From the IMG/VR virus record IMGVR_UViG_2808606549_000001, positions 63,535 through 127,534 of that record: DNA of 64,000 nucleotides. One strand, 5' to 3'. This DNA comes from a virus (Duplodnaviria > Caudoviricetes). A program made the translations under genes and the position numbers. Positions 12,401-63,994 of this stretch are shown in pieces (the first letter of the stretch is position 1; each line of letters begins with the position of its first letter). The notes beneath the pieces are model-generated. The model saw only the letters and a list, made by a program, of their open reading frames with translations. It made no database searches and had not been told where the DNA came from.

Positions 12401-14103
12401 CATTGAAATTCCGCTTTTATTCTCCCAGATCCATATCGAAATCTAAGCTCCAATAAAAATTTCCCCAATGGCTATCCAACTTTTCTAGGACACTATCGGA
12501 TACAATGCAGTTCACAAATTCATTATTTACTTCGTCATATTCTCCAACTTTGATACCGAAACTCTCAAGAAGTTCTCTGTCCTCTTTACCAGCACAAATT
12601 GATCCAAAATGCATATTAACCACTCCTGATAAATGTTCAATTTCATTTTAATAATTCGTTTCAATATCATCGATACAACTTACAATAGCCATAAATACTT
12701 TGCAGTCATGAATTCCGCCTTCTTCGTTTTCACGCAGCAAATATTTGTATTCTTCAAGTGCATCTTGTTCATTGTCCCAGAAACTCACACTAGGATAGAA
12801 TGGACGATTAATTCCTACAACCCACATTTTCTTCCTCCCGATAAAATCCTGATTTTAAGCATCATTGTGTCCAACAATGTGGAACATAGGATTATTAAGA
12901 TAATAGTTGTAATATATCTTAGACTGAATTAATGCTTCTAAATGTAAATCGTCCATTTCCTCTACGGTTGGCTTCAATTTTGTTTTTAAATGATACCATT
13001 TGTTCTTTCCATACTTTTTCTCAAGAGCATTCAACCTTTCAACCAATCCCCAGTTCTTTGGTTCCTGATAGAAATACAAGTTATCATTCTCTCCAATCTG
13101 TGTGAAACTCGAATTTTATTGTAAGTCTACTTTGTAGTTGTAATCGATTGAACCTTTAGGAACATAGATAGTTGTATCTCCCGATTCCCAAGAAGGGAAC
13201 CAGCGCTCTAGGTTTTTATTTTTGAATCGCTTATCAGTAATCTTAATTACTGGTTGCTCCTTATCTGTCTCGATCAGATAACTCTTTTCAGCACTCACGC
13301 TTTGAATCTGCATTCCTTTATCTGACTGAACCATGTAATAGTATTTCATTTCATCATCGACAGAACCTGAGCCTAGAAAGAAGCGTCCGCTTACTCCAAC
13401 ATTATCTTTCAATGCGACCATAGGTATTTCTTCTTTTATGTATTCCTCTTGATCATTGAAAGAATGAATTAACATAGCTGCAACTAACATCGGTAATAGC
13501 GCAATCAATGCTCCGATCAAACCACTAAGTACTGATATTTCTATTTCGAATTCTTCATCAAAAAAATAATACGAGAGTGCTCCAACAATAAAACCAATCA
13601 ATATTATAAGTGCGTATCCCAATGATTTACCCTCCCTCTATCACAGTCCTTGATTTCCAAGCTTTTTAATCTCTTGCTTCAGTACCTTATTGCGCTTCAA
13701 ATTCGCTTTCATTTCGGCTTTACGAAGAGCAATTTCGTGACCAACTTCCTTGTTATACTTATCGCCTGGAAGTACCTTAGCAACACCTTTGATACCGTCA
13801 GGGAAGATAACAATTGTTGCTGGATCGCTATAAATGACTTTGTAACCATCTCTTAATTCAATCTCTGGCTGGTCATCAACAAGTGTGATTTCTGAAGCCA
13901 TTACAGGAAACCAATGTTTAGTGCCTTCGCGAGTTATGTATTCAACTCTATAAGGATAATAAATATCAGTTTCATCAAAATGAGTAACAGTTCCTTCGAC
14001 ATTAACTATTTGGTGCTGTTCAGCAAGTTTGCTTTTTAAAAATACTACCTTATCCCCCACATTAAACTTTCTCATTCTGTAAATCCCCCATGAAATTGAT
14101 TTT

Positions 14104-14628
14104 TTATCGACCATCAAAATAGTTTAATACTTCTGTCCAGTTCCTCATTCTCCTGTATCGCGTTTCCGTTCTATTATGTGGAGCATCAAAGAGCAATGCT
14201 TTACCAATGAATCCTTCAAAGTTTCCTGGCTTATCATCAATGAGCCAATCAGCATTTACAATACTTTTGTTTCTTGTAAACACATAATTATCTTCTTTGA
14301 TGAATGGAAAGTACTTCTTAAGCCAATTCGATTTTGGTTCAACATTATTAGGATTATATGGTGCGGTCACAACAAAAATCTCATATGTATAAGATAGTTC
14401 TCTTACTGCTTCTATGCTGCCTTCAATTAACGGTAGAGACTCGAAAAATTCGGGATCATCCAAATACTTATAAAATTGCTTACCAGCCTTTGTTATATCA
14501 TGACAGTTCTGATGAGTCATTTGACATGTCTTCAGATTATCATTGAATTCATTATTGTATCGTCGTAACCATTCAGATAGGATATCTGCCAAACATTGAT
14601 CTTGATCAATTGCAATCCGTTTCTTCAA
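14104..14628 (-). CDS. 5'(3')-deoxyribonucleotidase, HAD family (YorS-like)
   Basis: IAIDQDQCLAD, FVVTAP, WLIDD, LFDAPHN motifs; TTG start at 14628 after GAGGTG. Confidence 0.85.
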   Translation of the reverse strand: MKKRIAIDQDQCLADILSEWLRRYNNEFNDNLKTCQMTHQNCHDITKAGKQFYKYLDDPEFFESLPLIEGSIEAVRELSYTYEIFVVTAPYNPNNVEPKSNWLKKYFPFIKEDNYVFTRNKSIVNADWLIDDKPGNFEGFIGKALLFDAPHNRTETRYRRMRNWTEVLNYFDGR

Positions 14629-17876: not shown

Positions 17877-18591
17877 ATGTATTGTTCAATCTCCTTATAT
17901 TATTGTTTAGTTTTATTAACTCACTAAGCAATTTATATAAGGGTGGACTGCGAACACGCTGTATATGATCAACCTCCTTATCTCCGTCTTGCTAACTTTA
18001 AGCATGGTATCAAATTCGTTAATTAAAAGTCAATAGTTAGCATACTTCACTTTATAATTATTTTTGTGGGGAGGTTCTTCCTCCCCTATTTATCTATGCG
18101 TTCAATGACAACCCTTCTATGTATGTTCGAGTTGTCTTCCTGATCGCTGGATAATCCATGTTACCTTCAAAGCAGTCAATCCAAGCATTCAAGTCGTCCA
18201 TTTCGCGGATATGCTCTTTCAATAAAATAAATAATTCATCGTCTTCTTGAACGCCAAAACACTCAACTAAACCAGCGAAAAACTGAGTAATGCCGCGATC
18301 CCAATTATGCAGCAAATAGTCGTAGGTAAACTCACTCATAGATTTTTTCTCCTGGTAGTTGTTGATTATTAGTTTTATACTCATTCATCATATAACGGAC
18401 AGCGGCCATACCCCTAATCCCTTTGGCCTCAAGTTCTTTAACGAACTCTGGCTTGCCGCCCATCTTGGCATGATGATCAGATGTGAATATTTTTTTGAAT
18501 ATTCCGACTATAATGGACAATTATCTTACATCCCCTTATTGGACATATAAGTTTATTTTAGTCAAGACCCATTTAAAGACTTAAGCTTAAA

Positions 18592-18700
18592 TTTACATGT
18601 TAGATAACCTGTTATATACTTTGAAAAGGATGAAGAAACGACTTCCGATAAATGAGTGATCCGCCAAGTTCAACTCATTTGTTAGAGGTTGTTTTTTTGT
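18592..18700 (+). ncRNA. Candidate small RNA: sigma-A promoter plus a long hairpin with T tail
   Basis: TTTACA(18592)-17bp-TATACT(18615); stem AAACGACTTC...ATAAATGAGT / ACTCATTTGT...GAGGTTGTTT followed by T7. Confidence 0.4.
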
Positions 18701-18868
18701 ATTGATAATTATACATCATCGCCTTCTCCCTTATTTTTTATATAGATAATGATTATATATTATCAAAATTTTCCTTGAACAATAAGACAGATTTTTTACT
18801 AAAAAATCGATATTTACATTATTATTCAGTTATGCAAGTTGTAAGAACATTGTCGAAGCTTGTTGAAT

Positions 18869-19342
18869 CTAGTTGTATTGCATTTTAAAGATACTTTGTT
18901 CAGAAATATCGTTTATTTTCCCTAGTTGTTTGGAGACTATATTTTTGATCGCAGATCTTGTAACGTCTACCTGCGCTCCATTATCAAAATACACTACATT
19001 TTTAAATGAATCGTATTGCTTCATCTTTGTCATGTTTGCTAACAAACCATAATTTAAACACTTAAAATTTTCATTGTTTTCTTCAAGGAATTCAACAAGA
19101 TCATACGGAAAAGATTTAAAGGAAACTTCGCTGCCGATAGTTCTGATTACAATGTTACCAGATTTCAACTGGCGAACGAAGACAATATTGTTTACAGGTT
19201 CAAAAGCAAAACCTTTTTCCTCATTTGGAATAGTAATAAACTCAGAACTTACACTTTGGTAAATGGAGTTTATAATTTGTGCTTTTTCAGAAGTAGTGAA
19301 ATTTTGAAATCCTTCTTTGAAGTTCTTTATAAAGTTCTCCAT
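18869..19342 (-). CDS. Stand-alone LytTR-domain protein with no receiver domain
   Basis: NIVFVRQ...IVIRT...LVEFLEE...FKCLNYGLLANM...VYFDNGAQVDVTRS follows the LytTR pattern (IxYIE...FxRxHRSxxVN...LxNG...VSR), though degenerate. Confidence 0.7.
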   Translation of the reverse strand: MENFIKNFKEGFQNFTTSEKAQIINSIYQSVSSEFITIPNEEKGFAFEPVNNIVFVRQLKSGNIVIRTIGSEVSFKSFPYDLVEFLEENNENFKCLNYGLLANMTKMKQYDSFKNVVYFDNGAQVDVTRSAIKNIVSKQLGKINDISEQSIFKMQYN

Positions 19343-19366
19343 TTACGATTCCTCCATTTTAGATTA

Positions 19367-19399
19367 ATGTAACGCACCCAATAAATGAGTGCGCTACAT
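19367..19399 (-). other. 14-bp RNA hairpin between the peptide gene and the LytTR gene
   Basis: Minus strand ATGTAGCGCACTCA-TTTAT-TGGGTGCGTTACAT pairs fully only on the minus strand (two G-U pairs). Confidence 0.7.
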
Positions 19400-19425
19400 A
19401 CTCTATGTATTCATCGACTTATCAA

Positions 19426-19527
19426 TTACTTAGTCTTTGTGTTAAAGAAAAGCCAAACCTTATCGATTACAGCTTCTGGTACGGATTCAACTGCCTTAAC
19501 TACAACTTTAGAAATAATCTTTTTCAA
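19426..19527 (-). CDS. AgrD-like pro-peptide, 33 aa: MKKIISKVVVKAVESVPEAVIDKVWLFFNTKTK
   Basis: GGAGGTGA RBS plus TTG; amphipathic basic leader, aromatic core, charged tail; in an operon with agrB; not in the ORF track. Confidence 0.7.
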   Translation of the reverse strand: MKKIISKVVVKAVESVPEAVIDKVWLFFNTKTK

Positions 19528-19545
19528 AATATTCACCTCCCTTCA

Positions 19546-20205
19546 TTAATTGTATTCTATTTGATCCCTTTTATGGGACAAATACAGGAATATTATTGAC
19601 GATACAATGGTTACAATTGTTGCAACTATCATTAGCGATATCGACAAGTATATGTAGAAACTTATACAGACCAGTCCCAAAATAAGTATAATGGCGATTG
19701 TCAAGTAAAGGAAAGCTTTATAGTTTGATTTTCTACTCTTTAAGTTAAACCCAAAACCGCCATTTGTTAATTTGATATACATTCCTACTGAGATAGCGAG
19801 TACCGCGCACAATGTTTGGAATGAATATGTCTTAGTTGAGAATGACTTATTTAGGTCGTCTGGCGATAATGCGTCCATTCCAACTCCAATAAGTGAAACT
19901 AGCCACTGAACTACAAAGTAGAAAGTAAAGCCACCAATAATCACAATGGTTGACCTTGCTAACGGCATCTTGAAAACTTTAACGAACGTAAGAATCAAAG
20001 CTGGTACTAAAATCAAAGGCAATGGAACATAGTCGAACATTTTTGCGATTACAAGTAAGTAGGATACGAACGTAACTCCGATGATCGATAATAGTATCTC
20101 CCACCTATATGATCTGAAATCAATGTTGAAGAAACTGAAGATGAGGACGAAGATTGCTAAATACTCAAAGCTTGAGAATAACATGTATTCCAAAAAGTTC
20201 GCCAT
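19546..20205 (-). CDS. Polytopic membrane protein resembling an AgrC-type sensor domain, without a kinase domain
   Basis: About 7 hydrophobic segments, 219 aa, no H-box or ATPase motifs; between agrB and the peptide gene. Confidence 0.6.
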   Translation of the reverse strand: MANFLEYMLFSSFEYLAIFVLIFSFFNIDFRSYRWEILLSIIGVTFVSYLLVIAKMFDYVPLPLILVPALILTFVKVFKMPLARSTIVIIGGFTFYFVVQWLVSLIGVGMDALSPDDLNKSFSTKTYSFQTLCAVLAISVGMYIKLTNGGFGFNLKSRKSNYKAFLYLTIAIILILGLVCISFYIYLSISLMIVATIVTIVSSIIFLYLSHKRDQIEYN

Positions 20206-20206
20206 C

Positions 20207-20752
20207 TTACATCCTCCATATCCTCATTAACCTTTGGTTACGGTAAATCAAATCAAATGACAGAATGAAGAATGTAAGCAGCATGGTGTTAGATAGGAAA
20301 TATGATAGTATACAGACCGCACATGAAATTATTTTATGTATGTTATTTCCATTATGTTTTGTGTGATATGGGCTAAGGAACAGATTAACGATTATGGCGA
20401 ACAATGTCACTGCTACATAAAAACTTTGAGGTGGATCGTTGTGACTTATCAAGGGATTTACGAGGATAGCGCCTGTCGTGACCAAAAGACATGAATCTGG
20501 AGTATTAAAGTGATTGCCACCATTCCAAATGCGAATAATCGCAAGCGATATAGTTGATATGATTACTTCCTTTAGCACCCCAAAGTAGATCCCTGTGAAA
20601 ATTAGTATTGGTAATAACAATAAGTAAATTGCTATAACTCCCAATTTCTTTTCCATTCTTAGTATATCATTATCTATATCTTCTGAGATGTAGTTTTCTA
20701 AATTATTATAAATCCCTTTTGCTATGTATTCGCATAATTTCTGTATTGGCAT
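20207..20752 (-). CDS. agrB: AgrB-family peptide-processing membrane protease
   Basis: IRIWNGGNHFNTPDSC matches AgrB RxxxGGxH...C with catalytic His and Cys; multiple TM segments. Confidence 0.85.
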   Translation of the reverse strand: MPIQKLCEYIAKGIYNNLENYISEDIDNDILRMEKKLGVIAIYLLLLPILIFTGIYFGVLKEVIISTISLAIIRIWNGGNHFNTPDSCLLVTTGAILVNPLISHNDPPQSFYVAVTLFAIIVNLFLSPYHTKHNGNNIHKIISCAVCILSYFLSNTMLLTFFILSFDLIYRNQRLMRIWRM

Positions 20753-20789
20753 GTTTCACCTCGTTTTCCACTTGGCAACTCCTTATGTA

Positions 20790-20823
20790 TGTAACTTAGC
20801 ATATTCGATTTACCAAAGTCAAT
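20790..20823 (-). promoter_or_regulatory. Putative sigma-A promoter of the agr-like operon
   Basis: TTGACT -35 and an extended -10-like TGCTAAGTT upstream of agrB. Confidence 0.45.
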
Positions 20824-20860: not shown

Positions 20861-20890
20861 TAAAAAAAGTCCTAGAAATTTATCTAGGAC
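20861..20890 (-). terminator. Terminator after the MrpR-like gene
   Basis: GTCCTAGA-TAAATT-TCTAGGAC followed by T7 on the minus strand. Confidence 0.8.
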
Positions 20891-21855
20891 AGATTATAAA
20901 CCTCTTTTACTGTATCTAAATTCAAGAACTCTGATCTCAATCGCTGCATGCTTTGATTGTTTGTAATATTGAACTTATCAGCAATGACCTTATATTCTTC
21001 ATCATCTAATCTTCCGGTTTGCTGATACAGTTCTTTTGCAACGAAGAGCATGGCGCTTTCAAGAATATTGGTTGGCGTAAAATTTTCCTCTCCAAGATCA
21101 TCTTTAATCGTCTTTAATCTTCTATGGACGATTGTGAAATCGGCTTCATCGAATCTGATTGTGTGTGTCTGGGCGGACCTGATGATATATTGGTTATCAA
21201 CTAATGCAGCCGTTTCCGACCGAATATCCTTGCTCACATTGCCATTCTTTTTTTCGTAATACAATTCACGTAATGCTTTTTCACAAAGAGCAATACAACG
21301 ATCATCAACTGATACTGTACGTGTGGTTCCGTCTTCGTCTGTAACCGTTAATTGGTTCTTATCAGCATGGACGTCACTGCGTTTAAGGTTGGTTATCTCA
21401 GCGTTCCTAGAGCCTTTTACACCGTTCCAGAGCAGCGACACAATGGCTGCGTCCTGAGCATTAACCAACTTGTTTAGAATGCTGTTTATCTCACTGTCAG
21501 TCCAATACTTTTTAGATGCTACTTTAAATTGTTCCTGCCATGCCTTATCAACACTATCCAATGGATTTAAACCTTTTCTATAGCCTCTCTCAATACTCCA
21601 TTCGATATATTTCGACACATATTTGCAGTTATTCCTGCTAGCATACTCTGTCGTAGGTAAGAACAAATAGAACAATCTTCTTAGTTCTTCTCTATTGAAA
21701 CTATACAGATCCTTACCAAGTTCCTCTTCCATCTTGTAAGATATCTTAAATGTTCTATCTAGAATTTTCTTTGTTCCTGGACCAAAGCCTGAATCAATAT
21801 ACTCTTTTTTTATCTCTTCGTTGTACCACTTATCTTCATACAAAACATTAGCCAT
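20884..21855 (-). CDS. yopR: SPbeta YopR/MrpR-like master repressor (degenerate tyrosine-recombinase fold)
   Basis: YNEEIKKEY, KDLYSF, YIEWSI, LVNAQD.AI..LLWNGV.G, LVDNQYII, FTPTNI..S recalled as co-linear with YopR; lacks the HxxR and catalytic motifs. Confidence 0.75.
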   Translation of the reverse strand: MANVLYEDKWYNEEIKKEYIDSGFGPGTKKILDRTFKISYKMEEELGKDLYSFNREELRRLFYLFLPTTEYASRNNCKYVSKYIEWSIERGYRKGLNPLDSVDKAWQEQFKVASKKYWTDSEINSILNKLVNAQDAAIVSLLWNGVKGSRNAEITNLKRSDVHADKNQLTVTDEDGTTRTVSVDDRCIALCEKALRELYYEKKNGNVSKDIRSETAALVDNQYIIRSAQTHTIRFDEADFTIVHRRLKTIKDDLGEENFTPTNILESAMLFVAKELYQQTGRLDDEEYKVIADKFNITNNQSMQRLRSEFLNLDTVKEVYNLS

Positions 21856-21864
21856 CGGTATACC

Positions 21865-23208
21865 TCACTTCAACAGTTTGTCAGCTTGTTCTTCAAATAA
21901 CTTACGAATCTCGCCTTTAACCTTATTGGAGTTAACTTTACCTTGGCCAGCCATCAGATTGTTCAGTTGAGTACCTTCTTTTTTCTCAAAGTTGATACTG
22001 TCAATTACCTTCACAATGTCATCAACTGGGAAGTCTTTTCCGTACTTCTTATAAAGTTTACCAGCAAGCGCAATAAAACCAACGAACATGTTGTGATGTA
22101 CAAACCAAGAAGTTTCAATTAACTTGGATTTCTCTTTACCAAATTGATCTTCATAGTTAGCCATAAAATAACCAAAAAACTTCTTCAGTGCGTCTAGAAT
22201 ATCATAACGATCTTTGGCATTTTGAGGTTCAAATACTGATTCTATTGTATCAGACAAAATGGCAAAGTTTGTTAACAAATTGAGTTTTTTATCTAGAGCA
22301 GTTTTAATTGATATTCTGTTCTTAAACTCGTGAATGTTCATTAAATCTTTTGCAATCTGAGCACCAATTGTTTCTGCTTTGTAGTGCTTTACAAGAGTTT
22401 TATCAAAGGGATTTACTGTGTTGATCTGGCCTAGTAAGAACTGAGCTTCTTCCAGTGGATAGTGTTTAATCTGAACACCAATATAACCTTCAATATTAGG
22501 TTCTTCCTCAAGTACATTCAGGATCGCAGTAAGTCGATGCATTCCATCAATTAGGTTAATTGTAGTACCTTCAAAAATAGTTAACTGTCCATCTTCAAAA
22601 GTAATCTTGTCATTACCATCAACAAGGATATTTAACAACAAAGCATCAGGCTTATACTTACCTTCAACCATCAACTTAGTAATCGCTTTAACACTCTTCT
22701 GTTGAACATCTTCTTTCTCAACAATCTGACCTGTTCTCTTACTTAATCGTTTTTTACTTAATCTTTGAGTTTGGAAGTTGTAAGTAATTACTCCTGCGTT
22801 CCAGAGGGCCGCAATTTCCTGGAAACTAATATATGTGATATAGTCTCTACCTGTCGGAAATTCGGTCACATGGCGAAGCGTATATGGATATTCAATGGCT
22901 TTCTCGTCTTCGTACTTATACTTAGCAGCCGCTTTAACCTGTTTTTGAGTAAAGAATATCGAAGGATCAATTTTTACGTTTTCTGTGACCTTATGTAGAG
23001 CCACAGTATAAAATGCAATTTCTTCATCAGACAACTGCTGTACTTTCTCTGTGTTTGCAACTAATTCAACAAATGTTCCTCTAGGTACATTGTGCTCAGT
23101 AGCGAGTGTGTCATCAATAGTTCTAATTAGTTCTTTGTTTTGTGCAATTTCAGTTAGAACCTCTGGAAGAATATCCTGAATAGATCTCGTTTCAATTGCT
23201 TCACTCAT
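21865..23208 (-). CDS. yopQ: YopQ-like DGQHR/DndB-family protein
   Basis: YNFQTQR, NLIDGMHRL, GQINTVNP; directly upstream of the yopR-like gene as in SPbeta. Confidence 0.75.
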   Translation of the reverse strand: MSEAIETRSIQDILPEVLTEIAQNKELIRTIDDTLATEHNVPRGTFVELVANTEKVQQLSDEEIAFYTVALHKVTENVKIDPSIFFTQKQVKAAAKYKYEDEKAIEYPYTLRHVTEFPTGRDYITYISFQEIAALWNAGVITYNFQTQRLSKKRLSKRTGQIVEKEDVQQKSVKAITKLMVEGKYKPDALLLNILVDGNDKITFEDGQLTIFEGTTINLIDGMHRLTAILNVLEEEPNIEGYIGVQIKHYPLEEAQFLLGQINTVNPFDKTLVKHYKAETIGAQIAKDLMNIHEFKNRISIKTALDKKLNLLTNFAILSDTIESVFEPQNAKDRYDILDALKKFFGYFMANYEDQFGKEKSKLIETSWFVHHNMFVGFIALAGKLYKKYGKDFPVDDIVKVIDSINFEKKEGTQLNNLMAGQGKVNSNKVKGEIRKLFEEQADKLLK

Positions 23209-23808
23209 TAACTCATCTCCTCACTTAGATACAACTACACTATTTTATACTGCGTTTGTCATTGACTATAGTATACACAATTAAAATTAAAAAATACACT
23301 CCCCTACATAAAAGAGGGAGTGCATTTTGAATGAATTTATTATGAAATTTCTAATTATTAGCCTCCTTGCTTTGATTCAGACGCTTATCTGTTTCAATTT
23401 TACCCTAACACTATCTTGTACTTATTATCTAAACAGTAATGGAAGGCATCAATTCTGTATGTAAAAACCTTAATTTCCTCTTGAGTTTTCTTATCAATAA
23501 CAACCCACAAATCCTTCCTGGAGCCATCTAAAGGACGTGAAATTATAACCTCTTTCAAGTTAATTGAACTCCTCATATAAGGCGTATACTTTATCTCTGA
23601 ATTCCCTTCTAATTCGATTCCTATTCATCCAATCGTCTGCATCTGAAACGCTCAGTGCTACGTCCTGCACACCCTTAATCATGCGTACAGCAGCGACAAT
23701 GGACTCAACAGTTTCTTCTCCGTAATCATCGTTTAGAGACACATAGAAACCCTTAATTGGATCAGACATAATTATTATATCACCTCATGAAAGTATGTTT
23801 TTATCAGA

Positions 23809-24630: not shown

Positions 24631-27600
24631 TCTTCTTCACCTCATGAAATCGTCAATTTGATCAACTATAAAGAGCAAGTAACATTATCTTTTGTAAGCA
24701 TTGAGCAGAGTAAAACCAATGAAAGCAAAGATTTTAAAATCTGTTCTTTCAGTTTCAAAATCAACTACTTGTTGAAGTTGATCAATTATTTGCTCTTCAG
24801 TTAATTCATTTTTATTGCTAATATAAACAATTTTCGTAATTGGTCCGTTTTCAGTTGCAATCTCGTATGACACTTGATACGCGTAGTTTCCTCGTACAGT
24901 CGCTTCCAACGTCTTATTAAATGGCAAATAATTAAAGTTCATCGATCTTTATCCTTTCCTGATGAAACTGTTATTTTATCGTAATTTTTTTAATTGTATT
25001 CACACGTTCCTCAGCTTCTTTCAACCATTCCTCTTTTATTCGAGTGGCAAGATCAAGGAGTGGCTTTTTCTTCGCACAAAAATAATACACGCTATTATAT
25101 TGGGAGACTTCATCAGTTATAGATCCAATATGATTATGAAATACCTTTCTAAGTGGTTTAATTTCGATTTTCGTTTCACTCTTGTCGACATATAGATTGT
25201 ACATATGGATTCTCCTTACTTCCTATGAATGAGTCTTTTTATTGATTTAATACTTTTCGATATCGCTTTACCATTTCATACAGTAGTGGCTCGGTGATTA
25301 AATGAATCAGATACTTAACTCCACCATTCTCTTCGCAGAACTTTTCATAAGTGCTACGCAGAACTCCATCTTCTAAGACTCCCGTTTTACGCCAAGACTC
25401 ATTTTCATTGAATGCTTTCTCGATTTGCTCATCAGTTAGTTCGCTCATCATTTGCTCAATTGTTTTCATGATATTATCTCCTTATGAAATAGTATAATTA
25501 TTTACCTGTGAGGACTTCTTTTAATCTAATCCAAGCTTCTTCATAACTGCTGGCTGTCACCTCAAGCCTAACTGACCTGTCGCTTCTATAATAGAATTTC
25601 CAACATTTCCTTTCAGGCAAACGATCCGGCAGCTCCCACAGTTTTTCAAGTTCCATTAGTCATCCAACCTTCTCAGAGCTGCGTCATTGGCGTCACAAAC
25701 CTTCTCAGCCATTTCCCTAATTATCTGTCTCCTTGACTCCTTAGTGCGGTCTATAAAGCGTCTAAACATCTCATTCAACACAGCATGATTCATGTCATCT
25801 AAATTCAACTCAGATTCATATTGGTCATCATGATCATCACACCATTTTTCAAGTAATCCGCCACGTTTAAATGGTTCCTCAATAGCTTGAACCAATTCGA
25901 TATCAGTTTTATTTTCAATAAATTCTCTCTTCACTTCGTTATACATCATTTTACATTCTCCCTATCGTGGAAGTCTCAAATCAGAAACCTTACTGATCAA
26001 ATCACGCAGGAATATCATCAAGTCTCTTTCGGTTAGTTTACATTCCGCTTCCTGTACCTTTAGGATATTACCAATGCACTCATTCATCAACTCATTCTTG
26101 TATGATTGTTGAGTTGCTTTTAAATCATCAACGGCATTTCCCAGAGCATATTCAGCCCTACTCATTTCACTAAAAGCGTTCATAACATTTTCATTTTTCA
26201 TTTATATGTCATCTCCTCATGAAGTGGATTTTTTATTTACTCTTCAACAAAATCTAAAAGCATATTATCTATAACATGGGATGTATGTTTGGCCTCTCCG
26301 TCAAGGAACACAACTTTGCTGCGAATATCTTCTTTCCAGACTACTTCAGCAGTGTCACCTTCGTTTACGAGTAATCGCTCTTTTGACAAGTGTCGATAAA
26401 CAACAAAGTTCTGGTTTACAATTGCATTCATATAAATCTCCTCTCTTTTCTGATAAAACTGACATTTCATTGGATTTCTACTTTAATGCTTAGAAACTTC
26501 TTACCGCTTTTTTGATGAGAGAAACATACGTCAAATGAGTTGGCATCGCATTCGACAATATTGTAATCAACTTGATAAGCTGCGCAGACGCCAGTTAAAT
26601 ACCCAGAACTATATTTATACTCTGAAGATTCTTCTCTTTGGTAAACCACCGACTTAACCATGTAATATATATAATTTTGTGCGGCCATTTTGAGTAGTTC
26701 ATTTCTTTGATTAATATACCTCACTTCCTTTTAAATAATCACCATTTAATTTCTTCTTAATTTCATCTTTGAATTCAGTTGTAATCCTTTCGCCTTTAAT
26801 CGAGTATGTAATATCTTCAGCAAAGGGCAACCAGGACTTAATTTCCTCGAATAGTTCATCAGTTACCATAACGCGGACATCACCTTTATAAGCAGGACAG
26901 CGTTGGTAGAACTCCTTACCACGCTCAATGACGAGTACCTGTGGCCTTCCCGTTAGAACATGCTCCTGCCACTCTAGGATGCTTTGAGCGCTGTCGCTTA
27001 GATCCTTCCATTGCATTTAATCTCACTCTCGCTTTCCAATGAAATTGCATCTCTTATTTGCTTATTAGGTTAGAAAGTGTGTTAGTGCACTCGTCACACA
27101 GAACCATTTGATTTAAATTGTTTTTACTTGTGTCTCCAGCAAAGATAATATTCACCTTCTTGCTCTCTTTGCAGGAGTCACAAGTTTCAAATCCACCTCT
27201 AATTAAAATCCCCATTTCTGCATTCGCACCTCATAAAAGTGAAATATCATTGTATTATACCTCTACTAAGTATTTAGATTCTATCCAATATTTCTGCCCA
27301 ATTTCAGAAGCTACATCATGTTTCAACACTTGCACACAAACACTATCATTTCTGTATTCGGTAATTATTGCTTCTTTGATCATTACTACTGCGTCAGTAT
27401 GTGCTTTAGCAGCCATCGCTTTTGGTTTAACCTTTAGTCCATCTAGTTGTTCAGACAAAATGGCGTCGATTCGAAATTTAATATCCTTCATAACTAGCCT
27501 CCCATGAAAGTCAGTTTTTATCGCCTTTCTCCATTAAGACAATAACCACAAACGTTTTCACCTTTTACAACTTTCCATCCAAGCCTCTTTAGGAATTTAT

Positions 27601-28381: not shown

Positions 28382-30606
28382 TCACATTTCCATCCGCATG
28401 GTTTCCAATAAAACAACTCTTTCATTATCTTCCTACGAATTTCTCTTTGATAAAATCTGCTGCATCATAAAACCCGAACTTATTTGCAATTGTATATAGG
28501 TCGCTCATCTGTTCATTTAATGAATCTTGTCGTTGAGTGCATTGTTTTACTTTCTTAAATTCATCTTTCCAAAATGCCTTATCCTGGAGTTCTGCAAACT
28601 CGCTTTCAGTCAATAAGTCCTCTGGTTTCTCACGATTGGTATAGTAATATAATTCGAAACCATCATACAATCCACCTTCAACTGTAAGTAAAACTTCATT
28701 GGATTCAACATAAACTAAATTCATTTTTTGGTGTTTACTAATAACTACTTCGTTGTTGTCGTCGTCAGTGGTTTCGATTTCGCTTGCTGTATAAAACACC
28801 TTATTCTTACTTAATTGTTCCCATGTTTGCATTTACCTATCTCCTTATAAGTGGGGTTGATGAAACTAGTATTTTATCTACTCATGTTCGATTAGCAGAT
28901 CCATCTTTCTTCCTTCTTCCGCAATTCGAGTGTAATACTTAAATCTAACATCATAAATGTTCCAGTCGTGTATTTTATCCTCCAAGAATGCCGTTATACC
29001 ATGCTGCAATTTAGGATTATCAATTGTTCTCTTAATAGGATTTTCAATTTTCTCGCCTGTTTGAGTATCGAATTTATCTCCTTCAAACATCCGTTCCTCA
29101 TCTAAAATTGACCAGACACGTTTTATCTTGATACCTAGCAAACCCATATCTTCTAACAGTGTATACGAAACATTAGGGATTCCTCTTACAATCTTATAAG
29201 GCATCTTTTCACCCCTTCCTCCATTCTGAATGAAACGAGTCCTTTATCGAAACATTAATCTTCAATTTCCATGTCTCTAACTCTTTCTCCGTCAACCCAT
29301 ACTTCGATTTTTCTATAAATAAATGCCTTTTTAGCAGCCTTGTATTTTAAAACGGCTTTATCAAAATCCGTTCCAACATAAATGCTTTCGTTATTATCAC
29401 TTAACATGCTCTCACCGATAACCAAATATACTTCCATTTTTGGCACCCTCTCTCTTCTTCTCATGAAACCAATCTTTTATCGCCTCTTTATTCTTGCCTC
29501 TTCAGCTCTTTTCCCGCGAGCTGCCCACTGCAATGCCTTAGTTCTATATTCACCAGCTTTGTCATATTTTCCTCTCGCCGCTGCTTGTTTGCTCTTTGTT
29601 TCCCAATGTCCTGCTCTATCATTGCAATATTTTGAAGTATCTCTACTTTGAATAATATGCTCCCCCATCTCCATGAAATCTCCGTTTCATTCAAATCTCT
29701 AATGAAGGTTCTTCTTCAATAAGTTCGCCATCCCATTTAGAGCCGTAATACCATTTTTGCAGTTCCTTAGTTGCAGCATAAATTGTCTTTGCTACTTTCG
29801 ACTCAAATCCGACTTTTACAGATACGTAATCTTGAAATTCGCATGACATGTCGGTATCGATAGTTCCATCATCATTAAATCGAATGTAGCCATTTCGAAA
29901 TTCAATTTCCCCACGATGCTCTTTGATCCATTCGAGTGCTCTAATATCACTCATATTAAACATTAAGATCACTCCTTTTGCCAGGAAATCAGTTATTCAT
30001 CGAATATCTTTAACCTTGCTTACCAAATCATTGATAAAAATCTTCAAATCAAACTCCGTAATATCTCCAGATTCTTTCTTAATCTTTATAATCCCTTCAA
30101 TACACTCTTCTATGAGTGAGTTAGTGTATGCTTTTTGCGCTACTCTCAGATCATCGTTTGCAGAACGTGCCTTATGTTCAGCTTCGCTCAATTCTTTTCG
30201 AGTTTGTTTATGAGTTTCATTCATCTCTAGCACCCCTTGAAATTAGATTTTCGTTTACTTTCTGCCGCACAACTGACCTATTTGAAAATACTTTTATTTT
30301 CTGTTTTTAAACTATTCCAGACTCCTTCATATTTCGAGATGATATCTTTTAGCGACTTCAAAATTTCGCCATTCAATTCCAAGCGCACTTCTTTGTCATC
30401 AACTCTAACTAAAGTAATAGTTTCTCGATCCTCATCTACTTCAATTTCGTTTGGAAAGTTAACATCGTTCAACCATGAAAAGGCATTATCTTGATTTGCC
30501 CATTCTGTCAAAGGATTGCTACTGATTTGCAAGTCTTCGTTAGCTTCTTTGCTCGCAAATTCTTTTTTGATTGTTGTCTTCTTCATAATTTTAACATCTC
30601 CTCTTT

Positions 30607-55330: not shown

Positions 55331-55606
55331 CTATCACCTCCAGACATTACCCTTTTTCATAAATTAATTTAAATAAATTTTACTCCTATACTATACTAGG
55401 GCTACAATTACCCTCCCAACATACCATACATTCAAATTTTATATACCTAATAATAAAATTGAAGTTTAAAACACACATCTATATACATATCACCAATAAC
55501 AAAATACAAAAATAGAATACAGACCCACATATACCCCCATAGGGTATACGACAGTATGCCCTATAGATTATGTTTTTATTATTAAATTTATGTTTTTATA
55601 TATTCT

Positions 55607-55768
55607 ATCCGGTTTTGAGGGGTAAATATCAAGTTTGTTTTTCCTGATATCCGGTTTTTTGGCCTAAATATCACGTTTTTCGTGTTTTCCTATATATCCG
55701 GTTTTCGGGGGTAAATATCAAGTTTTTTTACAGGGCGCATCCGGTTTTTGAGGGTAAATATCACGTTT
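55607..55768 (+). repeat. Four 30-bp direct repeats ATCCGGTTTT-N6-TAAATATCA(A/C)GTTT (iteron-like)
   Basis: Starts at 55607, 55649, 55696, 55739 (periods 42, 47, 43); adjacent AT-rich tract at 55565-55605. Confidence 0.85.
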
Positions 55769-56050
55769 TTTTCAGGCATCAAATTTACCTTCATTATCAA
55801 CGGTTTCTGATTGCCCTGATACTTACCATGTTTTGTACACTAAAATAAATAAATTTTACATGTTACTATGATGGAGGTTACAATCCCCCTATTCTGCCTC
55901 TGCATATCTCAAATTTATTATCTGGACAATAAAATTGAAACTCAGAACATGCGTTAAAGGGTATTCCCTAACCTCACTACAAATTAAAGGTCACCGAATA
56001 TATAATTCGGCAACCTCAATATACATTTTTACCTTAGTAAAAGTCAATGG

Positions 56051-63423: not shown

Positions 63424-63994
63424 ACCATATGGATAAGGAAAAAGAACTTAAAATTAAGCGAGAAGATAAATTCGAAACGCTTATGTTTGCTGTTGACTAC
63501 ATTCAAAAAATCATCTCCATTACAGGTGAATTTAATAATGACGATATCTTTAGTTGTCTTAAGAGAATTTATGATGAAGGATATAGTAACGGCAAGCGAG
63601 ATGCTTTAGAAAACATCATTTACAATGCATATCATGAAATTGATTCTATTGAAAAAGATGAAGCATGAACCGCTGAAGCGAGTCCTCTGCTTACTAGTGG
63701 AGGTATAATCCTATGTCAGAAGATGAATATTGGGCAAGTGAACCCATGGACGATGGCGATGAGGATGAAATTCTATATGAATTTCTGATCGATGAACCAG
63801 AGGATTTAACTTTAGTAATGCTACCTATGATCGATTTCAACTTAGAAGATGCACTTGAAAACTACTACAAACAACTAAAACGTTGCCGAAATAAAGATCA
63901 AATTAAGACTGTACTTCTAAGGTTCTATTCGTATGTTGTTGCCATGACAAATCTCCAAAGTGACATCCATTACCTACAGCAAAGAAGCGCTTAG
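63420..63994 (+). CDS. Two acidic hypothetical proteins (63420..63668 and 63713..63994)
   Basis: ORF track; RBS before 63713. Confidence 0.55.

Follow-up and report, generated by a model that had tools for sequence, protein, structure and literature searches.

The stretch of DNA analysed here (the window, 64,000 nucleotides) is the second half, positions 63,535 to 127,534, of a 127,534-bp virus record (IMGVR_UViG_2808606549_000001) for which CheckV gives a completeness of 86%. It carries a small Agr-like cassette, i.e., a separate minus-strand unit of four genes and a hairpin that lies downstream of DndB/YopQ-like and MrpR repressor genes and a terminator. In order of transcription, the cassette consists of a putative promoter, an AgrB-family gene, a gene for a seven-helix membrane protein that we call TM7, a gene for a short AgrD-like precursor, the hairpin, and a gene for a LytTR protein without receiver domain:

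20793..20822, minus strand: putative sigma-A promoter of the cassette (TTGACT, 18 nt, TG-n-TAAGTT), read by eye and missed by a consensus scan
20207..20752, minus strand: AgrB-family peptidase/cyclase, 181 amino acids (PF04647, E 1.4e-13)
19546..20205, minus strand: TM7, seven-helix membrane protein, 219 amino acids (phrog_15604 "membrane protein", E 5e-14)
19426..19527, minus strand: AgrD-like precursor, 33 amino acids (MKKIISKVVVKAVESVPEAVIDKVWLFFNTKTK), with a TTG start at 19527 six bases past GGAGGTG
19367..19399, minus strand: 14-bp hairpin between the peptide and LytTR genes, with no T-run after it
18869..19342, minus strand: receiver-less AgrA-like LytTR DNA-binding protein, 157 amino acids, with its domain at approximately residues 48-135

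All four reading frames are intact and have good ribosome-binding sites. The original prediction had described a separate unit of agrB, a seven-helix protein without kinase domain, a 33-residue peptide, a hairpin, and a receiver-less LytTR protein, and all five were recovered exactly where it had placed them. The feature is real and intact. It represents a widespread variant of Agr-type systems that has been found several times within the lysogeny regions of phages.

AgrB of the window matches PF04647 with 51.1 bits (cut-off 23) over profile positions 3-159 of 185, in agreement with the predicted family assignment, and also matches phrog_10353 (E 3e-10). Arg74, Gly78, His81, and Cys88 are invariant in 29/29 sequences of an alignment composed of the window protein and 28 relatives, and the catalytic histidine and cysteine are thus intact as had been proposed. 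The catalytic pair of Staphylococcus aureus AgrB is His77/Cys84 with a His-x6-Cys spacing, and the same spacing equates His81/Cys88 of the window protein with this pair.

The TM7 gene starts 2 nt past the stop codon of agrB. TM7 belongs to no Pfam, NCBIfam, or PADLOC family, and 45 members of the TM7 family compared with Pfam likewise gave no family and no protease or transporter motifs. An AlphaFold model (145-sequence alignment; predicted local distance difference test [pLDDT] 95.8) has seven long helices, and our reading of the topology by the positive-inside rule would place the N-terminus outside and the C-terminal tail inside the cell. The protein lacks a kinase domain because it stops about ten residues after helix 7; accordingly, Pfam finds neither a PF14501-type dimerisation/phosphotransfer domain nor an ATPase domain. 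Its relatives are abundant. Among 1.84 billion cluster representatives screened with a profile, 215 are related to TM7, and the 150 of these that were listed measure 115-240 amino acids with none longer than 240. A six-frame search of 136 genomes from the family of Paenibacillus chitinolyticus found TM7 matches in 105, often several per genome and up to 8, with open frames of 213-289 amino acids among the matches listed. Named members are "hypothetical proteins" of Paenibacillus species, and neither the 150 listed representatives nor the genomic open frames that were listed include a TM7 fused to a kinase. We could therefore rule out that the membrane gene is a recently truncated agrC, a possibility raised in the original prediction, because members of this large family stand alone at ca. 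220 amino acids.

In histidine kinases with PF14501 (387-452 amino acids), it is the N-terminal membrane part that aligns with an ESM Atlas model of TM7, over 202-214 of the 219 residues of TM7 and with template-modelling scores (TM-scores) of 0.71-0.78. Rows for lipid synthases and transporters of the major facilitator superfamily (MFS) in the same list reach 0.33-0.45 only. When we call TM7 "AgrC-sensor-like", this refers to such predicted folds. The top rows of a wider structural aligner covered helices 6-7 only (Z up to 8.4), as is typical of helical hairpins.

The LytTR protein cannot hold a receiver domain since only 47 residues stand before its DNA-binding domain. A profile built from the window protein and 13 relatives finds the LytTR domain of AgrA as its best solved match (4xqj, E 3e-6), followed by ComE (E 6e-4). 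PF04397 is matched by 9 of 14 LytTR relatives, and the short form of the protein (ca. 113 amino acids) matches it at about E 1e-11. NCBIfam has no family for the LytTR protein or for the 33-residue peptide. In a word-based search of 5.8 billion proteins, the window AgrB and LytTR proteins each retrieved only themselves, and TM7 retrieved three relatives. A tandem duplication of 14-15 nt (19337-19365) covers the start of the LytTR gene together with its ribosome-binding site and yields a four-codon mini-open reading frame (ORF) just upstream.

The conservation of this gene set was studied in 70 TM7 loci of Paenibacillaceae, comprising the 30 best matches with 1.5-kb flanks and 40 high-ranking matches chosen by hand from the same list with 2.5-kb flanks (numbered with an L prefix below). 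An AgrB gene adjoins TM7 in 52/70 of these loci, and the two genes abut or overlap in nearly all loci. A small AgrD-like ORF with a strong ribosome-binding site directly follows the AgrB/TM7 pair in 51 of the 52, and 45 of them contain a LytTR-only gene. All but one of the 62 LytTR-like ORFs in these loci have 107-202 amino acids; the other reads 570 amino acids. AgrB, TM7, the peptide, and a receiver-less LytTR protein hence form a conserved module, as anticipated from the neighbourhood in the window, and this module is not peculiar to one phage but common in Paenibacillaceae chromosomes.

Its genes come in two layouts that occupy opposite sides of one branch of the AgrB tree, i.e., AgrB-TM7-peptide-LytTR, the order of the window (14 loci), and TM7-AgrB-peptide-LytTR (38 loci). 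TM7 genes often stand in tandem beside a single AgrB gene, e.g., three at L020, with further cases at L088, L083, and L106:26243-27647. Many sets also include a second LytTR-only gene (L023:3169-3570, L072-L084 and others; L008, L012, L016, L086), which is divergent and encodes 133 amino acids in the TM7-AgrB layout and is a tandem copy in some prophage-type loci; this points to an output through two regulators.

In the program-made ORF list, the frame of the peptide has 36 amino acids and starts at a GTG within the ribosome-binding site. Like AgrD, the 33-residue precursor has an amphipathic leader and a short hydrophobic core. Unlike AgrD, it has no cysteine or serine five residues before the cleavage site; cysteine is absent altogether, and Lys23 occupies the register where relatives have cysteine or serine. 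We compared 55 precursors, two of them phage peptides and the other 53 small ORFs of the loci, where L083 contributes two sets. All 55 show the AgrD layout, in which a basic amphipathic leader precedes a short hydrophobic core and a tail, and the tail of many of them contains P-K-E-L. A script rule assigned the residue five before the tail as lysine in 27, serine in 17, and cysteine in 7 precursors, with 4 unassigned or without such residue. After manual reading of the unassigned rows and one ambiguous row, the counts were 30 lysine, 16 serine, 8 cysteine, and 1 none, and these manually read labels were the ones mapped onto the AgrB tree. There, the precursor class changes 10 times compared with a mean of 21.9 after shuffling (0/200 shuffles as low), to which relatedness itself contributes, and lysine-type precursors form deep, well-supported AgrB clades. 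The lysine type includes the peptide of the window (Lys23) as well as the precursors of the phages Davies and Harrison described below, and in this type the lysine is the sole conserved possible nucleophile.

AgrB acts via a thioester acyl-enzyme that is attacked by an internal cysteine or serine. A lysine amine at the ring position would therefore close a lactam ring, and to our knowledge the rings of autoinducing peptides are closed by sulfur or oxygen only. The lysine-type precursors thus suggest a lactam signal, with a linear product as the alternative.

The genes upstream of the cassette are those of a lysogeny module, listed here together with a terminator-like hairpin and a repeated element of the window:

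21865..23208, minus strand: YopQ-like gene of the DndB family, 447 amino acids (PF14072 DndB, E 4.9e-12; phrog_5732, E 7e-81)
20884..21855, minus strand: MrpR (YopR)-like master repressor, 323 amino acids (PF22822 MrpR_N_CB, E 2.4e-23; PF22823 MrpR_C_cat, E 9.8e-18)
20869..20890, minus strand: terminator-like hairpin and T-run (8-bp stem with 4 G-C pairs, then TTTTTTTAAT)
254-48629: repeated element CATGAAA-N6-TTTTATCG, an imperfect palindrome, 47 sites (e.g., 588-608, 14089-14109, 23786-23806, 27503-27523, 29462-29482)

The terminator-like hairpin stands at the end of the MrpR gene and divides the cassette from the repressor operon. These matches corroborate the position just after yopQ-yopR(mrpR)-like genes that had been read from the window, and the YopQ-like protein is 67% identical to the product of the gene at the equivalent position in locus L076. 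The repeated element, counted at up to 3 mismatches, has 47 copies in the window compared with 6.4 +/- 2.7 expected. Most copies lie in gaps ahead of minus-strand genes, and those nearest to the cassette are at 23786 and 15821. SPbeta uses an element of this kind, SPBRE, as a binding site for MrpR (PMC10516654), and CATGAAA-N6-TTTTATCG is probably this phage's counterpart of that operator. With MrpR, a YopQ-like neighbour, and a repeated operator-like element, the region has the hallmarks of an SPbeta-like lysogeny module, and the cassette sits in the lysogeny-control region of a temperate SPbeta-like phage. As the original prediction had noted for the window, no AimR-like protein accompanies it; a search with NF038310, for which a Bacillus subtilis control scored above the cut-off, found none in the whole 127.5-kb record (86% complete). 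The cassette is not a known defence system either, given that a PADLOC scan returned no match for any of its proteins.

The linkage to phage lysogeny genes recurs. MrpR is encoded directly upstream in 9/14 loci of the window order compared with 0/38 loci of the TM7-AgrB order, and P. chitinolyticus keeps the entire series of YopQ-like, MrpR, AgrB, TM7, peptide, and LytTR genes. A full set also exists in two isolated temperate phages of other kinds:

Brevibacillus phage Davies gp44-gp48: gp44 TM7 (profile E 1e-41), gp45 TM7 (E 3e-45), gp46 AgrB, gp47 lysine-type precursor of 39 amino acids, gp48 LytTR-only protein of 121 amino acids (E 2e-13)
Paenibacillus phage Harrison gp38-41: TM7, AgrB, precursor of 42 amino acids, LytTR-only protein of 118 amino acids

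The Davies set lies between the integrase (gp43) and XRE-type regulators (gp51-53), and that of Harrison is near the integrase. TM7 is further encoded by phages Emery, Abouo, and Paisley. Harrison gp41 (L107:5297-5653) is annotated as a "peptidase", probably wrongly because it matches the LytTR-only profile of the module (E 1e-16).

A collection of 50,697 phage records contains no match to the cassette DNA, to AgrB, LytTR, or TM7 of the window, or to TM7 of L009, and Davies gp45 was the sole query that retrieved phages from it. Scans of a viral contig collection with the window AgrB and TM7 found no relatives, and a scan with MrpR found two loci, one of which (L034) has no cassette downstream of MrpR. 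Even compared with its closest syntenic relatives (L076 and L086), the window is 50-67% identical in YopQ and MrpR but 23-34% in AgrB, TM7, and LytTR, and the cassette proteins of these two loci are no closer to those of the window than are those of distant prophages. The cassette has thus diverged far more than its flanks, as expected of sets of signal and receptor specificity that diversify or are swapped.

The putative promoter of the cassette is close to consensus, and comparable near-consensus promoters were seen by eye at the equivalent place in 8/14 other loci of the window order. The 111-nt stretch around the hairpin at 19367-19399 folds with -30.9 kcal/mol (z -4.8; 0/200 shuffles as good), and a strong hairpin, unrelated in sequence, occupies the gap between peptide and LytTR genes in 11/12 loci of the window order that have a script-found downstream LytTR gene. 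In the TM7-AgrB order, this spacer has no more than 25 nt and no hairpin in 23/30 loci. None of the copies of CATGAAA-N6-TTTTATCG lies at the cassette promoter, and by analogy with SPBRE the cassette might thus stay outside the control of the repressor and be expressed in lysogens.

Taken together, we lean slightly towards a self-contained Agr-type circuit that dispenses with a phosphorelay, in which AgrB makes a peptide, TM7 senses it, and TM7 directly gates the LytTR protein. The strong promoter of the cassette would drive agrB, TM7, and the peptide gene, and the hairpin might reduce the relative amount of LytTR protein, either by cutting read-through or by stabilising the RNA upstream of it. 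AgrB (His81/Cys88) would then remove the C-terminal tail of the 33-residue precursor via an acyl-enzyme intermediate, and Lys23 as the only conserved nucleophile could resolve it into a lactam ring of five or six residues, or else a linear peptide would be released. The amphipathic leader would be taken off during export. The extracellular peptide would bind the AgrC-sensor-like TM7 and, in the absence of a kinase, TM7 may signal via its conserved cytoplasmic loop (around Gly150-Phe153) and its C-terminal tail, with which it would either retain the LytTR protein or set it free. The LytTR protein would then act at promoters elsewhere.

Several observations weigh against this circuit. In 18/70 loci, no AgrB gene adjoins TM7, which can therefore exist without the module; the neighbours checked in 7 of these are housekeeping genes or, at L104, a LytTR gene. 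Orphan TM7 genes with neither AgrB nor LytTR neighbours are L077, L082, L087, L090, L094, L096, L097, L099-L103, and L105, and the genes beside orphans, where checked, are SprT-like, CorA, ABC transporter, and cardiolipin-synthase-like genes. The sensor assignment has its own difficulties. The list from the ESM Atlas also holds the membrane domain of a GGDEF protein (TM-score 0.67), so that the fold of TM7 would be that of a general sensor module. When profiles of TM7 were compared with the N-terminal parts of 8 AgrC-type kinases from the same bacterial family, the result was not significant, hmmsearch between TM7 and AgrC sensors reached at best E 2.8e-5 (40-sequence set) over ca. 57 residues with an hhalign probability of 1.1%, and no solved structure resembles TM7 (Foldseek on PDB, best E 1.0). 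The tail of the window precursor (five or six residues) is devoid of the proline motif of P-x-E-L type seen in most relatives, though the nearest cassette relative, L005, shares the lysine-type core, the short tail, and the lack of this motif. On the output side, the single LytTR protein of the window scores below the PF04397 cut-off (E 0.002, 18.8 bits compared with 22.6). Upstream of agrB, no LytTR-type direct repeats are significant in 15 loci (lowest shuffle p 0.08), and autoinduction is therefore not evident. Lastly, CATGAAA-N6-TTTTATCG is absent from the cassette promoter although it marks many other promoters of the phage, which fits a moron as well as a decision circuit.

Some of these points feed directly into other explanations. 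TM7 might be a partner of AgrB in processing, export, or self-protection and not a receptor, with LytTR as an ordinary constitutive regulator of the operon or its neighbours and a peptide that acts on another receptor or like a bacteriocin. The close coupling of the TM7 and AgrB genes in nearly all loci, including the 2-nt gap in the window, suggests partners that are made together, the sequence kinship of TM7 to AgrC sensors is not significant, and the cassette promoters look constitutive without LytTR-type repeats. However, the best fold matches of TM7 are sensor domains of PF14501 kinases and not the low-scoring lipid synthases and MFS transporters, and the absence of protease and transporter motifs or any Pfam family in 45 members does not suit a processing or export role. 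Tandem copies of TM7 beside a single AgrB (two in Davies, three at L020) are expected for receptors, and a LytTR-only gene accompanies 45/52 sets. We therefore consider this explanation unlikely. Equally improbable in our view is that the cassette meddles with Agr-type signalling of the host, be it through a peptide that jams or mimics host signals or through TM7 and LytTR eavesdropping on host peptides. In genomes of the host family, paralogous sets are indeed plentiful and so are orphan TM7 genes, with as many as 8 matches in one genome, canonical AgrC-type kinases are present there as well (PF14501 in 24/31 genomes), and cross-inhibition between Agr variants is established in staphylococci. 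Comparable roles were proposed for the agr genes of phage phiCDHM1 by the authors who described them (PMC3901668). Yet the phage is equipped with all that a private channel requires, from the producer via a candidate receptor to the output, and the strong divergence of the cassette relative to its flanks is explained less readily by mimicry of a single host signal than by private specificities.

The cassette might also be what is left of a canonical agrBDCA locus in decay, which lost kinase and receiver, had its cysteine mutated, and no longer signals. This would fit a peptide without cysteine, a tail without the common motif, the weak LytTR match, and the failure of the word-based search to find close relatives of the window AgrB and LytTR. 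However, all four frames are intact with good ribosome-binding sites, the catalytic residues are retained, hundreds of loci regularly and not by accident lack the kinase and the receiver, L005 keeps the lysine-type core and short tail, and lysine-type precursors populate deep, well-supported AgrB clades. We disfavour decay as very improbable.

If the module signals, its role would be in phage life-cycle decisions (lysogenisation or induction) with a probability that comes close to an even chance, in lysogenic conversion of host traits with that of roughly one case in three, and in something else with that of a minor remainder. A bolder and rather doubtful extension is that temperate phages of Paenibacillaceae and Brevibacillus have a second form of phage-to-phage communication, unrelated to arbitrium. 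There, a lactam made by AgrB and closed by lysine would be sensed at the membrane. The AgrC-like receptor, devoid of a kinase, would directly gate an AgrA-like regulator without receiver, and fast-diverging sets of signal and receptor, acting as private pherotypes, would report the number of kin lysogens or infections nearby and bias lysogeny or induction.

Should the circuit prove true, Agr-type peptide sensing would be possible without kinase and receiver, and orphan systems of LytTR plus membrane protein would obtain a concrete ligand along with a pathway for its biosynthesis. Ring closure by lysine would add a new chemistry to natural autoinducing peptides, and the lactam form would resist hydrolysis. 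Three unrelated kinds of temperate phages have the set in their lysogeny region, i.e., after MrpR in SPbeta-like prophages and by the integrase in the Davies and Harrison groups, and this recurrence makes a second, membrane-sensed communication system of phages directly testable. Beyond phages, the TM7 family is abundant in Paenibacillaceae associated with soil and plants, where a genome has several copies, and it is therefore probably a major unstudied signalling layer in these bacteria.

Further features of the window lie outside the cassette. The 348-bp gap 3' of the LytTR gene (18521-18868) has a 14-codon mini-ORF with a good ribosome-binding site (18719-18675) followed by an inverted repeat (18633-18657 / 18673-18697), and could be a regulatory leader or a target region of the LytTR protein. 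A 96-residue ORF further downstream (18094-18384) has a homologue at the equivalent place in L076. At 55594-55770, four tandem copies of a unit of ca. 43-47 bp with the common core ATCCGGTTTT...TAAATATCA (repeat family D2) form an array that looks like an iteron or origin array.

Parts of this module had been noticed before. Hargreaves et al. described AgrB, a putative AgrD, and possible AgrC homologues without ATPase domain in the Brevibacillus phages Davies, Emery, and Abouo in 2014, and the sections of that paper available to us do not mention a LytTR partner (PMC3901668). Their set is equivalent to the module of the window, which we verified for Davies. It differs in its order (TM7-TM7-AgrB-peptide-LytTR), in its position at an integrase/XRE-repressor site and not an MrpR site, and in belonging to a 46-kb myovirus compared with a phage of ca. 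130 kb. Apart from this remark and a mention in a figure legend (PMC4909266), the literature as available to us, with supplements outside its scope, contains no study of the kinase-less module, lysine-type precursors, or the MrpR link, and the AgrD lists in the supplements of PMC12180512 may hold these precursors.

Compared with canonical agrBDCA of the S. aureus type, the module shares the His/Cys pair of AgrB, a precursor of leader, core, and tail, a multi-helix membrane protein whose predicted fold resembles that of the AgrC sensor part, and a LytTR domain closest to that of AgrA. It differs in its gene order, in having lysine at the ring position (serine or cysteine in relatives), and in lacking both the dimerisation and histidine phosphotransfer (DHp) and HATPase kinase part and the receiver, and hence a phosphorelay. 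In the same bacterial group, the sections at hand report a cysteine-type autoinducing peptide of Paenibacillus polymyxa, with such peptides shown (PMC12180512), and an agrABCD locus of P. polymyxa whose annotation as canonical, including a kinase and a response regulator, was hypothesised and not validated (PMC13700820). The agr3 locus of the Clostridioides difficile phage phiCDHM1 is similar as a set of agrB, agrD, and an agrC-like gene on a temperate phage. However, its AgrC of 453 amino acids is described as a kinase and phiCDHM1 has no response regulator, whereas the window has a sensor without kinase together with a LytTR output (PMC3901668, as far as available). A review from 2025 restates this case (PMC11945551).

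The LytTR regulatory systems of Streptococcus mutans (HdrRM and BrsRM) are the precedent for phosphorylation-free control by a membrane inhibitor, and like the module they encode a receiver-less LytTR regulator with a membrane protein (PMC6193735, from the sections available, as for the following points). This pairing is in line with the hybrid of Agr processing and such an output that the original prediction proposed; gene order and the family of the membrane protein differ from those of the streptococcal systems. Their regulator gene comes first in an operon of two genes, while this order is reversed in the window and joined by AgrB and peptide genes. Their membrane proteins are of other families (e.g., DUF2154, HdrM/BrsM kinds) without AgrB or precursor, while TM7 has no Pfam family, and they autoregulate via direct repeats, of which none is significant upstream of agrB in the window (PMC6193735).

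Arbitrium (AimR-AimP-AimX) resembles the module as a secreted-peptide system of phages that is located in the lysogeny-control region of MrpR-using SPbeta-like phages. Its receptor is a TPR protein inside the cell, and its signal is a linear hexapeptide that enters through the Opp permease. The record of the window has no AimR, and sensing by its module would instead take place at the membrane.

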